DNA of 64,000 nt from a bacterium (lineage in GTDB: Bacteria > UBA8248). The translations under genes and the position numbers were made by a program. Below, in pieces: positions 21,462 to 24,259 of the stretch (its first letter is position 1; every line of letters starts with the position of its first letter). The DNA lies in assembly GCA_965219955.1 (NCBI GenBank), contig OZ244799.1, forward strand, positions 672,001-736,000, in the 5' to 3' direction. The notes below the pieces were generated by a model. It saw nothing but the letters and a program-made list of their open reading frames with translations, was not told the origin of the DNA and did not search any database.

Positions 21462-21740
21462 GGGGCTGTTGAAAAAGTCTTCACATCTCCCTCATCCTGA
21501 GTAGCGGCCCCTCGACTCCGCTCGGGACAGGCTCCGCCCCCACCTTCCTCATCCTGAGTAGCCGCCGAAGGCGGCGTATCGAAGGTCAAACGCGATTGAT
21601 GAATGAGTGTTTGCTCTCGCCCGGCGCGAGACGTTCGACTCCCCCCGCCCTTCGATACACCGCCTTCGGCGGCTACTCAGGGTGAGGAAAGAGGTGTTGG
21701 CGGTTTGCGGGGGTCGCAGACGGGCTTTTTCAACGGTCTC
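21462..21740. mobile_element. Nested 279-bp MITE-like container with perfect 5-bp TSD
   Basis: GGGGCTGTTGAAAAAG...CTTTTTCAACGGTCTC flanked by TTGTC (21457-21461) and TTGTC (21741-21745); carries an inverted CCTCATCCTGAGTAG...GTATCGAAGG doublet (21547-21585 / 21649-21687). Confidence 0.75.
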
Positions 21741-21798
21741 TTGTCAGGGGGCAAGAAATACCCCTCGCTTTGCTTGGGATTGACCTTCGCCTCCGCTC

Positions 21799-22013
21799 GT
21801 CATTCCGGCGAAAGCCGGAATCCATTTTCGCCTTTATCTTTGGCCTTTCGCCCGGACCTCCTCTCTCCCAACCGGGGAAGATACGGGCGCCGCCATATAT
21901 ATCCGCCTCATCCGTTCCGGATTTGGGCGCGCCGCTCTCTCCCGCGAGTCGGAGTCAAATGCGAAAACGAAAGCAAAAATCATAAAATGGATTCCGGCTT
22001 TCGCCGGAATGAC
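21799..22013. repeat. GTCATTCCGGCGAAAGCCGGAATCCA inverted-doublet element
   Basis: 26-bp perfect inverted termini; related copies at 36049-36261, 60676-60888 and 62363-62513. Confidence 0.85.
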
Positions 22014-22070
22014 GGCGGGAGGGTTTGCGGTTTTCGTAGGGGTCGGACATATATGTCCTATATGGACGCC

Positions 22071-22330
22071 CACGAGAATGCAAGCGGTTTTTGGGGAGGG
22101 TTCGGCGCAAAGCGGTTCGGCTCAGTCGTATATCCGGCCTCTTCGTTGCGGCGCTTTACTCTGGCCGCGGGCCCGTATGGAGATAGGTGGACCGGGTCCA
22201 AATCGACCTGGTGAGCTCGGTGGCTCTGGACACGCATCTGGTTTTCCCGGTCCCGTCTCGATGACCGTTTGCCCTTACCCTTCCTCCGGCCTGCTCACAT
22301 TCCTCCCGGCTCTATCCGTGCGCCCGCCGC
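22071..22330 (-). ncRNA. Putative bridge/seek RNA in the non-coding region downstream of the transposase
   Basis: ~260-nt 3' non-coding region typical of the IS1111 group; stem GGACCGGG/CCCGGTCC (22189-22196 / 22246-22253) encloses an internal loop with target-like segments. Confidence 0.7.
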
Positions 22331-23356
22331 TCAGGCGAGGGGCGCCGGCTCCCTGTAGACATCCTTGTTCCGCATCAGCGCCCACGCGATGCGCGCCATC
22401 CGGTTCGCCAGCGCCACCGCCACCACCTTCCTCGGCTTGCGCGCCAGCATCCGCGCCAGCCACGGACACGGCGGCTTCCGGCGACGCCCCGCCCAGCGTA
22501 TCTCCGACATCGCGCCCGATATCAACAGACGCCTCACGTCGCGCTGGCCCATCTTCGACATGCCCCCCAGACGGGGCTTGCCCCCCGTGGAGTGCTGCCG
22601 GGGAACCAGACCCAGCCAGGCCGAGAAGTCACGGCCCCGACGGAAGTTCTCCACCGGCGGCGCGAACGCCCGGATCGCCGACGCCGTAATCGGACCAACA
22701 CCCGGGATGCTCATCAGACGCCGCGCCTCCTCGTCCGCGTATGCGCTCGCCCGGAGCCGTCCGGTCAACTCCCGGACCTTCGCATCGAGGCCGCCAATCT
22801 GGGCGAGCAGAATCCCGCCCAACTCGCGGACCTCCTCGGGCAGGCCCGATTCCGCTCCCCGAACCGCCGCCGCCAGCCGTGTGAGGCCCACGGGCCCTTG
22901 CCGCTCGACGACCCCGAACTCCGCCAGGTGGCTGCGCAGCGCGTTGCGCGCCTGCGTGCGCTGACCCACCAGCAAATCCCGCGTGCGGTACTCCATCCCA
23001 CACCCCTGCTGCGCTTCGCTCTTCACCGCCACGAAGCGCATCGTCGCCCGGGTGGCCGCCTCGCAAATGGCCTCCGCATCCGCCGCGTCGTTCTTGTGGC
23101 GCTTCACGTAGGGCTTCACGTAGACCGGCGGCATGAGCCGAACCTCATGGCCGAGCTTGCCGACCTCGCGCCCCCAGTAGTGCGCGCTCGCGCACGCCTC
23201 CATCGCCACCACGCATCGAGGCTGCGACGACAGAAACTCCAGCACCTTCGCCCGCGTCAGCTTCTTGCGGAACGCGACCCGCCCGTCCGCCCACGCGCCG
23301 TGGAGTTGAAAACTGTGTTTCGCCAAGTCGACCCCGATGATGTAGACTCCTCCCAT
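22331..23356 (-). CDS. IS110 family DEDD transposase/recombinase (341 aa, apparently intact)
   Basis: GVDLAK, AMEACA, KNDAADAEAI, IPGVGPITA, WLGLVPRQHSTGG; RBS GGAAGGAG. Confidence 0.96.
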   Translation of the reverse strand: MGGVYIIGVDLAKHSFQLHGAWADGRVAFRKKLTRAKVLEFLSSQPRCVVAMEACASAHYWGREVGKLGHEVRLMPPVYVKPYVKRHKNDAADAEAICEAATRATMRFVAVKSEAQQGCGMEYRTRDLLVGQRTQARNALRSHLAEFGVVERQGPVGLTRLAAAVRGAESGLPEEVRELGGILLAQIGGLDAKVRELTGRLRASAYADEEARRLMSIPGVGPITASAIRAFAPPVENFRRGRDFSAWLGLVPRQHSTGGKPRLGGMSKMGQRDVRRLLISGAMSEIRWAGRRRKPPCPWLARMLARKPRKVVAVALANRMARIAWALMRNKDVYREPAPLA

Positions 23357-23475
23357 GGTCGTCTCCTTCCGGGCGGTGTGTGACGTCGTCTCGCCACATT
23401 CTAATCCGCCGGAAGGAGGCGTCCACCCCATCGACTGTGTGTTCTCCCGTTTTCCGTGTTCTCGTCCGAGCGATT

Positions 23476-23501
23476 GGGCGGACACGCAGGTCCGCCCCTA
23501 C
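23476..23501 (-). repeat. GTAG-type REP (partner of the IS-interrupted REP at 22036)
   Basis: Reverse complement is GTAGGGGCGGACCTGCGTGTCCGCCC. Confidence 0.75.
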
Positions 23502-23608
23502 ATATCGAACCCGATGGAGCAGGGCTTTTTCAACAACCCCCTTTGCGCTAGGCTTGCGCTTCGACTCTATGCTATAAATGCTTGCTCCGCTCGGGAGGGT
23601 TTCGCGAC

Positions 23609-24259
23609 ATGATCCGCGTGAAGATCTGTGGGGTGACGACGGTTCAGGATGCGGAATTCGCCCTGGAAGCAGGCGCTGACGCCCTGGGGCTGAATTTCGT
23701 TCCGGGCACTCCCCGGTGCCTGGAGGTGGCGCAGGCGAAGGAGATTGCCGAGGCGCTGCCGCCGTTCGGGACGCGGGTCGGCGTTTTCGTGAACGAACCC
23801 CCCGAGCATGTGATGGAAATCGCGCATCGCGTCGGTCTGGACGCGGCGCAGCTTCATGGCGATGAAACGCCGGAGGATTGTTGTTGGCTGATTGAACGGG
23901 GCTTGCGCGTGATCCGGGCCTTGCGGGTGAAGGGGCCCGAGACGATAGCGCAGATAGACGCGTTTACCGGTTGCGCGATATTGCTGGACGCCTACGTGAA
24001 GGGCGCGCTCGGAGGCACGGGCGAGACTTTCGATTGGGAATTGGCCCGGCAGGCGGCCGTTGCGAGACCCATCATCCTCTCGGGTGGCCTCAAGCCCGGG
24101 AACGTGGGCGAAGCGGTGAGGAGCGTTCAGCCCTACGGCGTGGATTCGAGCAGCGGGGTAGAGGGCGCGGTTCCGGGCCGAAAAGACCCCGAGCGGACTT
24201 TAAGTTTCATCGAAAACGCGCGCGCGGCGGTATCCGAGTTAGAGGAAATGAAAAGATGA
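23609..24259 (+). CDS. trpF: Phosphoribosylanthranilate isomerase
   Basis: [35 protein letters not shown]. Confidence 0.95.

Follow-up and report, generated by a model that had tools for sequence, protein, structure and literature searches.

What places a mobile element of about 1.4 kb within one arm of a host repeat, and what reads the site that it occupies? The question is raised by positions 22036-23501 of a stretch of 64,000 nucleotides (hereafter, the window) from a bacterium of the GTDB lineage UBA8248 (GenBank assembly GCA_965219955.1, contig OZ244799.1), where an insertion sequence (IS) of the IS110/IS1111 family, with its transposase on the minus strand, is sited within a repetitive extragenic palindrome (REP) of the host. 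The genome was analyzed as one contig of 4,283,615 bp, of which the window covers 672001-736000; positions given below are those of the window unless genome positions are stated. It is highly probable, at roughly 0.9, that this is an IS1111-group IS whose DEDD recombinase would be directed by an RNA from the 272-nt region downstream of its gene, as a sequence-only reading of the same DNA, made without database searches, had proposed in its central claim of an RNA-guided IS110/IS1111 recombinase. The parts of the locus on which the argument leans are the following:

22036-22058, plus strand: left part of the interrupted REP, with the GTAG head, GGG, the 5' arm GTCGGAC, the loop ATATAT and the start of the 3' arm, GTC; the C at 22058 is the remaining core base of the right-end side
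22059-23431, minus strand: insertion sequence, unique part of 1373 bp (1375 bp including one CG core)
22331-23356, minus strand: transposase/recombinase gene, 341 aa, with GLVPRQHSTG at residues 249-258
23432-23435, plus strand: core CG of the left-end side (23432-23433) and what remains of the REP 3' arm (AC), as read from the sequence
23476-23501, minus strand: partner REP, inverted and uninterrupted, of the GCG-loop type (GTAGGGGCGGACCTGCGTGTCCGCCC on the minus strand), which is the type fitted by the 5' target guide of the window copy

Conserved RNA structure and guide segments downstream of the gene

The sequence places the element in the IS1111 group of the IS110 family, and its protein among the DEDD transposases. 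Two Pfam domains were detected in the protein, DEDD_Tnp_IS110 (PF01548, N-terminal, DEDD RuvC-like; E 1.9e-13) and Transposase_20 (PF02371, C-terminal; E 8.2e-23), and the NCBIfam model NF033542, 'IS110 family RNA-guided transposase', was matched with 302 bits against a cut-off of 140. Annotated transposases of the IS4321 and IS5075 families shared 38-39% identity with it over 98% of the length, and the relatives with solved structures aligned in the C-terminal domain only (ISCro4, 9t56, E 8.5e-10; IS621, 8wt6, E 4.2e-9). The stretch GLVPRQHSTG fits the motif GL-P----S(t)G given for IS1111 transposases by Siddiquee et al. (2024, PMC11187229), its TG aligning with the SG of ISCro4, and candidate DEDD motifs are GVDLAK (from residue 8), AMEAC (51) and KNDAADA (88), the N-terminal alignment with ISCro4 being low-scoring (2.1 bits). 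The non-coding part is longer downstream of the gene (272 nt, 22059-22330) than upstream of it (75 nt, 23357-23431), which agrees with the layout of the IS1111 group, as do the subterminal inverted repeats and the protein length of 341 aa (330-350 aa in the group).

A blastn search of the genome returned eight full-length copies with 98.2-100% identity, each aligned over exactly 1-1374 of 22059-23432, besides one copy of 79.5% identity and four fragments. The boundaries drawn in the sequence-only reading are thereby confirmed on grounds independent of its reasoning, since the eight copies share exact ends; an identical protein is encoded by six of them. Beyond this genome, 80 homologous loci with transposases 56-81% identical were fetched from other genomes, and both ends were definable in 65.

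When 54 distinct sequences were aligned over the downstream non-coding region (MAFFT), a strongly conserved scaffold broken by two hypervariable blocks emerged. RNAalifold, run on 51 of these sequences (alignment A1) and without an imposed structure, returned six helices with 27 pairs in all: the fold is a three-way junction closed by a long-range stem, with an outer stem, a 2-bp helix, an internal loop and a GAGC/GCUC hairpin in its first arm, and GGCC/GGCC around a GCGGC/GCCGC hairpin in its second. The outer stem, internal loop and inner hairpin that had been pointed out in the window alone were thus recovered independently, with compensatory changes. Double (two-sided) changes were carried by 14 of the 27 pairs, and two pairs of the closing stem alone showed 16 and 19 of them. 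Paired cells amounted to 97.5%, compared with 90.7% in shuffles, none of 500 shuffles matched any of five measures, and moving the partner by 1-3 columns left 22-43% of cells paired. A covariance model built from the same alignment (R1) found 12 places in the genome, corresponding to the eight copies, the diverged copy, two gene-less orphan regions and a third element, and in three annotated plasmid elements it matched the DNA that directly follows the gene (65.8, 59.7 and 22.4 bits, the last being IS4321, E 1.2e-5). Taken at the strength given above, the region is predicted to encode a conserved, structured guide RNA with these parts:

22101-22280, minus strand: predicted bridge/seek RNA scaffold, drawn as far as the covariance model matches (this copy: 147.4 bits); the true RNA ends may differ
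22113-22267, minus strand: long-range closing stem S7, making the three-way junction (about 22264-22267 with 22113-22116)
22189-22253, minus strand: target-binding arm, with the outer stem S1 (GGACCGGG at 22189-22196 with CCCGGTCC at 22246-22253), the helix S2 (CC/GG, 22240-22241 with about 22198-22199), the internal loop, and the inner hairpin S3 (GAGC/GCTC, 22223-22226 with 22213-22216)
22136-22173, minus strand: second arm, with S4 (GGCC/GGCC, 22170-22173 with 22136-22139) and the hairpin S5 (GCGGC/GCCGC, 22164-22168 with 22148-22152)
22227-22237, minus strand: 5' target guide G5, AUGCGUGUCCA, complementary to the top strand of core G plus right flank (GGACACGCA)
22203-22210, minus strand: 3' target guide G3, CAGGUCGA, of the same sense as left flank plus core CG plus A
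22125-22135, minus strand: 3' donor guide D3, GGAUAUACGAC, in which AUAUA-CG-A equals the right-end TATA (plus A), the core and the first left-end base
22175-22182, minus strand: 5' donor segment D5, CUCCAUAC, in a strand of the junction; its CCAU pairs, weakly, with the left-end ATGG

The loop strands ATGCGTGTCC (minus strand of 22228-22237) and CGACCTGGT (plus strand of 22204-22212) read as had been claimed, and GGACACGCA recurs at 23480-23488, within the inverted partner REP. G5 is the reverse complement of the core and right flank, and G3 repeats the left flank, the core and an A, so that the top-strand complement lies 5' of the bottom-strand match, which is the order described for IS1111 seekRNAs (PMC11187229). 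Correspondence between guides and flanks was evaluated on 41 distinct homologous guide pairs with complete flanks, using the longest exact run and 2000 permutations. The mean run was 6.12 nt for G5 and 5.95 nt for G3 in cognate pairs, compared with 3.07 and 2.86 nt in non-cognate ones, and no permutation reached the observed mean for either guide (0/2000 in both cases). Runs of at least 6 nt were found in 27/41 (G5) and 23/41 (G3) cognate pairs, and in 2.8% and 1.0% of non-cognate pairs, respectively. Loop segments and flanks therefore covary, a point on which the sequence-only reading had staked itself, and the guides of homologues track their flanks even where the targets are unrelated and not REP-like.

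A similar pattern was found at the element's own end. The junction strand GGCCGGA-UAUA-CG-AC (22125-22135) repeats the last four right-end bases and the core, and the right-end 6-mer (4 nt plus core, in a GGA-xxxA-core-A pattern) takes 17 forms across homologues. This 6-mer was present in the cognate D3 in 26 of 30 distinct pairs, compared with 6 of 818 non-cognate ones; the four misses are the window copy (missing core base, see below), L034 (abnormal junction), L030 (one mismatch) and L055 (deleted or misaligned). Of the second-loop matches in the sequence-only reading (ATGG at 22177-22180 and TATAT at 22129-22133), both fall in donor segments, and AUAUACG tracks the right end as just described. 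On the D5 side, the position next to CCAU was pair-compatible in 31 of 35 distinct pairs with wobble counted, which weakly favors left-end pairing. Donor-binding nucleotides in a multiloop have been described for many IS1111 orthologues (Durrant et al. 2024, PMC11208160).

The copies within this genome provide a further line of evidence. Copies 1 and 2 (copy 2 being that of the window) are identical, and copies 1-6 differ at only 6 of 1374 positions, five of which fall in the 19 guide nucleotides (chance expectation, about 0.08). In copies 4, 5 and 6 (and also in copy 8), element positions 175-177 are changed from CGC to TAT, turning G5 from AUGCGUGUCC into AUAUAUGUCC, which is the loop of REP type 2. 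In copy 3, changes at positions 148 and 152 make G3 read CG-CCC on the target (A>C), which is the arm of REP type 1, and the change at position 192 gives a G-U pair in the outer stem. The new guide sequences exactly equal REP variants of the genome, three guide variants matching three REP sequence variants. Judged by G5, six copies lie in the REP type of their own guide (copies 1, 3 and 7 for GCG; 4, 6 and 8 for TAT). Copy 5 combines a TAT guide with a GCG-like non-REP site, and the window copy combines a GCG guide (AUGCGUGUCC) with an ATAT REP, the matching guide AUAUAUGUCC being carried by four other copies. A description of guide-only variants on an identical background in one genome, matching REP subtypes, was not found in the literature searched, supplements lying outside its scope, and we do not claim that it is unpublished.

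The course that would follow from these elements takes its biochemical steps from the family (IS621, ISEc11 and ISPa11). The RNA would be made and bound by the recombinase, which could be loaded with RNA from its own downstream region or from a sister copy. The 5' target segment AUGCGUGUCC would pair with the top strand just right of the CG core, and the 3' target segment CAGGUCGA with the bottom strand of the core and of the sequence to its left, while the element, excised as a circle, would be held via D3 (AUAUACGA, right end plus core) and D5 (CCAU, with the left-end ATGG). Strand exchange at the CG core, by a chemistry presumably like that of IS621 or ISEc11, would then put the element in the arm of a GTAG-type REP, with CG remaining on both sides.

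Element ends, recombination core and REP context

In gene orientation, the element starts with ATGGGG-TGGACGCC and ends with GGCGTCCA-TATA, and its end regions contain the following features:

23418-23425, minus strand: left subterminal inverted repeat TGGACGCC, with an outward 6-nt extension ATGGGG at 23426-23431
22063-22070, minus strand: right subterminal inverted repeat GGCGTCCA, with an outward 4-nt extension TATA at 22059-22062
23398-23425, minus strand: promoter-like site TGGACG-16 nt-TAGAAT in the left end, upstream of the transposase start (a consensus match only)
22078-22083, minus strand: conserved TTGCAT, 17 nt from the last two right-end bases; CTTGC is conserved in the aligned homologues

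The subterminal inverted repeats (8 bp, perfect) lie 6 and 4 nt inside the core; their length is inside the range of 7-17 bp given for IS1111 elements in PMC11208160, and under the 11-13 bp given as usual in PMC11187229. The dinucleotide CG stands directly outside both element ends in six of the eight copies, and the same dinucleotide (CG, TG or AG) was found on both flanks in nearly all of the 65 homologous loci with definable ends. Read from these flanks, the recombination core is CG at both ends, and the target-site duplication is limited to a short core common to target and element, as is characteristic of the family; a core pattern of this kind is known from ISPpu9, with AG at both ends (PMC12288879).

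In the window copy and in copy 8, the core on the right-end side is one base short. On the plus strand, the window reads TGTC-C-TATATGG where a full core gives TGTC-CG-TATATGG; in gene orientation, its right-end junction is CCATATA-G-GAC instead of CCATATA-CG-GAC. Full-core and one-base-short forms both occur in contigs of other public runs, and the missing base is probably real, having been seen in those contigs. Since this base is absent, the flanks of the window copy join without a duplicated base. GTAG (22036-22039), the left flank ending in GTCGGACATATATGTCC at 22058 and GAC (23433-23435) are all where the sequence-only reading had placed them, and joining them restores the palindrome GTCGGACATATATGTCCGAC. 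With one core base lost from the window copy, however, the circle junction proposed in that reading, CCCCATC/TATATGG, is one base short: the predicted junction should read ...CCATATA-CG-ATGGGG... (GGCGTCCATATA-CG-ATGGGGTGGACGCC). Likewise, the description of the element as intact applies to gene and RNA, but not to the right-end core.

Two proposals concerning these junctions were considered and discarded. A shift in the register of G5 in the lineage of the window copy, as the cause of the missing core base, was dropped, given that the offset of G5 varies among homologues (2 nt in 28, 0 in nine, 1 in six and 3 in three of 46 distinct guide/site pairs). That copy 5 is also short of one junction base was rejected on the continuity of the reading frame that it interrupts: copy 5 (genome positions about 1959371/1960746) occupies the non-REP site TGCGTGT-CG-ACCT, and its rejoined flanks are crossed by an open reading frame (ORF), at least 441 aa long and on the genome's minus strand, only if the 2-nt core is counted once. 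This insertion was therefore precise to the base, and it disrupts the ORF.

Other irregular ends were observed. Copy 7 (genome 4138592-4139965) is preceded by the left half of a REP and a 70-bp duplicate of the element's right-end part (4139961-4140035), which joins exactly at the DNA encoding the donor guide (CAGT-CG-TATATCC), CG-TATAT being common to this DNA and the real end, an arrangement that points to recombination or slippage of the element end with its own guide-coding mimic. At L034, the right end abuts the RNA region of another copy near its 5' donor segment, and at L043 the core and the final 10 nt of the right end are duplicated in tandem. Regarding expression signals, one promoter-like site was found at the left end, compared with 0.2 expected in shuffles, and, by analogy with other members of the family, TTGCAT together with TA-CG-AT would pair as -35 and -10 of a junction promoter only on the circle.

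The host REP family into which the element is inserted has the form GTAG-GGGCGGAC-loop-GTCCGCCC, with 45 matches to the head motif in the genome and variable loops, and a second type reads GTCGGAC-ATATAT-GTCCGAC. Seven of the eight copies sit in REPs, and guide variants match REP types, in line with the proposed aim at GTAG-REPs, but the guide of the window copy misfits its own ATAT REP. The window REPs form a composite unit (22036-22058 plus 23433-23501), in which about 45 bp of spacer separate an ATAT-type REP from an inverted GCG/GTG-type REP. Such units recur at several loci (e.g., genome 467296, 4057928 and 4076114) in the manner of bacterial interspersed mosaic elements (BIMEs), and copy 3 is inserted in the other REP of a unit of this kind. 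Outside this genome, the closest relatives (L001-L003, from metagenome-assembled genomes, transposase 80% identical) lie in GTAG-type REPs of another subtype (…CATACATG-CG-GCCC…), with guides altered to match it; judging from these guides, the lineage seems to follow REP variants across hosts. Other homologues look as though close relatives had traded guides and sites: L072 occupies a site that suits the 5' guide of L070, and the 5' guide of L072 in turn suits the site of L074.

Related elements in the same genome were compared with the window copy. The diverged sister element (genome 2600269-2601643; locus L081) is 79.5% identical in nucleotides and 74.7% in amino acids, has a CG core, and differs from the window copy in both guides and flanks, the former matching the latter in runs of 6 and 7 nt, at the non-REP-looking site GGTTCAT-CG-TTCACGG (gene orientation); its donor guide follows its own right end, with TGTAT instead of TATAT, as read by eye. 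A third IS1111-type element (about genome 2634545-2635985), flanked at each end by an AA core and with a transposase 40% identical, shares the RNA architecture of the window copy (57.6 bits with model R1), and its G3, G5 and D3 match its own flanks and end, also by eye. The two orphan RNA regions, which have no transposase gene, lie at genome 1860705-1860881 and 3812414-3812588 (141 and 114 bits, respectively): the former retains an element end and one flank fitting its own guide (by eye), and the latter is degenerate and stands beside an apparent tRNA gene.

Public sequencing was available as contigs of 24 listed runs, four of which were compared; such contigs show neither transcription, strand nor RNA ends. 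Contigs from three RNA libraries (two studies) span 22042-22367, a stretch running from the flank through the right end and all of the non-coding region to the final codons; little else of the gene is covered, and such gaps carry no evidential weight. These contigs have the TAT guide and a complete core. At best they hint weakly that the non-coding region yields an abundant RNA, library DNA being another possible source. No circle junction (end-to-start joint) was listed among the contigs, which drop rare forms, so that this is not evidence of absence. A 102-nt DNA contig from the sponge-metagenome run X7 joins 22057 to 23432, omitting 1374 bases, and fits the empty site ATATATGTCCGAC. No paralogue in the genome was identical to it over 102 nt (the best reached 95.6% over 90 nt), and besides an empty site, the contig could equally stem from a strain into which the element never inserted or, in another population, from a paralogous REP unit.

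Some further repeats were recorded in the surroundings. A second, commoner palindromic repeat, ATTCCGGCGAAAGCCGGAAT, has 235 matches over both strands, at about 118 sites in the genome; in the window it occurs at 21802, 21991, 26651, 36052, 36239, 60679, 60866, 62366 and 62491, and two of its copies bound the region immediately to the left of the element. In metagenome runs, the summed contig depth is very high in the bin 21957-22013 (X7: 32,504). A long inverted repeat at 21550-21685 is a real hairpin, and it matched a plant microRNA model below threshold (23 bits, gathering score 73, E 0.039), a match in name that is surely due to chance.

Counter-evidence and competing explanations

Several results weigh against an RNA-guided insertion at this locus, or fail to speak for it. 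The guides of the window copy fit their own site poorly (G3 2/5, G5 5/8), and guide type against site type over the eight copies gives 3:1 / 1:3, which is not significant alone (Fisher about 0.49); the evidential weight is in where the substitutions fall and what they spell, rather than in this table. In the homologues, the longest flank run was shorter than 6 nt in 14 of 41 (G5) and 18 of 41 (G3) pairs. As a single sequence, the whole 277-nt region (22059-22335) folds no better than shuffles (z = -0.71), so that the structure is supported by comparison and not by energy, and two of the four modelled pairs of S7 are mismatched in the window copy, where two neighboring pairs can form. No relevant family was found in Rfam 15 over 21500-24000 at E up to 1, the sole match being the unrelated microRNA model and Rfam perhaps lacking a family for such RNAs, and no promoter-like site was found upstream of the RNA region. 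The data from RNA libraries, being contigs, have no bearing on transcription, strand or ends. Finally, CCAU in D5 and ATGG at the left end are invariant, which makes this half of the donor proposal uninformative on left-end pairing.

How far the RNA is needed at all can be asked at two levels. REPs are structured targets and harbor seven of the eight copies, and in ISPpu10 a target stem-loop is reported to add specificity beyond base pairing (preprint 10.64898/2026.03.19.712850); protein-DNA contacts alone might accordingly recognize the hairpin, the loop matches being REP-like sequence picked up by the non-coding region. This is very improbable: homologue guides track flanks at unrelated targets that do not resemble REPs, copy 5 lies inside an ORF at a guide-matching site, and the differences between copies are confined to guides. 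A division of labor in which the RNA seeks the target only, with the ends read by the protein via the subterminal inverted repeats and the donor 'guides' without function, has more in its favor and is still unlikely. The inverted repeats are conserved, the seekRNA paper stresses target matches in what it describes (PMC11187229), and the left-end CCAU/ATGG pair gives no covariation; against it, D3 tracks the right end and core through all 17 6-mers, at the frequencies given above, and donor-binding multiloop nucleotides are described for many orthologues in PMC11208160.

Two other alternatives concern the window copy and the mismatched copies, and they leave more room. The one-base core at the right-end junction may mean that the window copy no longer excises cleanly; that it is altogether stranded, precise excision being barred so that it supplies protein and RNA in trans only, is a possibility that we rate as rather unlikely. 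The CCATATA-G-GAC junction, the same defect in copy 8 and the occurrence of both forms in contigs of other runs speak for it, while the X7 contig, if it is an empty site of this locus, speaks against it, and the missing base could also be an assembly error. As for the poor fit between guide and site in copies 2 and 5, it can be explained by RNA acting in trans, gene conversion, half-site insertion or assembly phasing. Gene conversion between the 1.4-kb copies or mis-phasing, instead of trans RNA, is a tentative candidate that deserves somewhat more credence than the stranded copy: outside the guides the copies are 99.8-100% identical, which favors conversion and hampers phasing, and the scores of the genome, 94.25% for completeness and 5.02% for contamination, mean that it may be a metagenome assembly. 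The present data fit this candidate and trans RNA alike, and half-match insertion is a further option (preprint 10.64898/2026.08.31.748434, as far as described there). Under RNA guidance in trans, a sister copy may have supplied the RNA that placed the window copy.

A broader interpretation of the guide variants is doubtful, if somewhat less so than a target-only RNA. The copies would form a repertoire of otherwise identical elements in which the guides alone are rewritten after REP subtypes, perhaps in blocks copied from target DNA, and would amount to a self-retargeting population whose RNAs act in trans on any copy. That three adjacent bases (CGC>TAT) exactly reproduce a REP loop would suggest such copying from target DNA over separate point mutations.

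Relation to known systems and significance

The element was compared with systems described in the literature, by what those reports state. It resembles the IS1111 elements with seekRNAs (ISPa11, ISEc11, ISKpn4 and ISPst6; PMC11187229) in the transposase of 330-350 aa, the GL-P----S(t)G motif, the long downstream non-coding region, the subterminal inverted repeats, and the top-strand complement placed 5' of the bottom-strand match, and ISPa11, compared by description, targets REPs as well. It differs from them in the length of the inverted repeat (8 bp, compared with usually 11-13 bp) and in the spacing of the repeats on the predicted circle, which is 12 nt (4 + 2 + 6) for this element, known from sequence alone, and 7 + 3 or 6 + 3 in those described. 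To the classical IS1111-family elements of enterobacterial plasmids, IS4321 and IS5075, it is linked by the protein identity reported above and, for IS4321, by the weak covariance-model match just downstream of the gene (22.4 bits).

With the IS110-group elements IS621 and ISCro4 (PMC11208160; PDB 8wt6 and 9t56), it would share an RNA-guided DEDD/serine recombinase and two-part guides on opposite strands around a 2-nt core, for target and donor alike; IS621 lands in REPs too. In contrast, sequence alignment is confined to the C-terminal domain (E 4e-9 to 9e-10), their RNA lies upstream of the gene with the guide order reversed, and their donor guides are described in a simple internal loop, instead of in strands of a three-way junction as predicted here. 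ISPpu9 and ISPpu10 of Pseudomonas putida (PMC12288879; preprint 10.64898/2026.03.19.712850) are likewise IS110-family elements resident in REPs and BIMEs, with the same dinucleotide at both ends (AG in ISPpu9), and orphan RNA-gene modules without transposase are reported for ISPpu9, comparable with the two orphan non-coding regions of this genome. They differ in hosts, cores and RNAs, and the downstream small RNA of ISPpu9 is reported to be dispensable for transposition, whereas the predicted downstream RNA here carries the guides.

REP targeting, a downstream RNA in IS1111 elements, two-strand guides around a core, multiloop donor nucleotides and natural retargeting between related elements are already in print, in the parts of PMC11187229, PMC11208160 and PMC12288879 that bear on them; the element therefore adds a member to the known REP-targeting kind with IS1111 bridge/seek RNAs and leaves the known mechanism unchanged. 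Its value is that of a clean natural data set for a family, the IS110/IS1111 RNA-guided recombinases, that is actively studied as a source of genome-writing tools. Conservation of the scaffold extends from an uncultured bacterium, marine or sponge-associated, to the plasmid-borne IS4321, and the guide positions for the target and the right end can be read directly from the sequence. Three guide variants on an identical background in one genome provide matched and mismatched pairs with which specificity, trans action and half-site insertion can be addressed. For the biology of the host, the insertions show REP/BIME units serving as safe places to land, and a gene has been disrupted by one of the copies.

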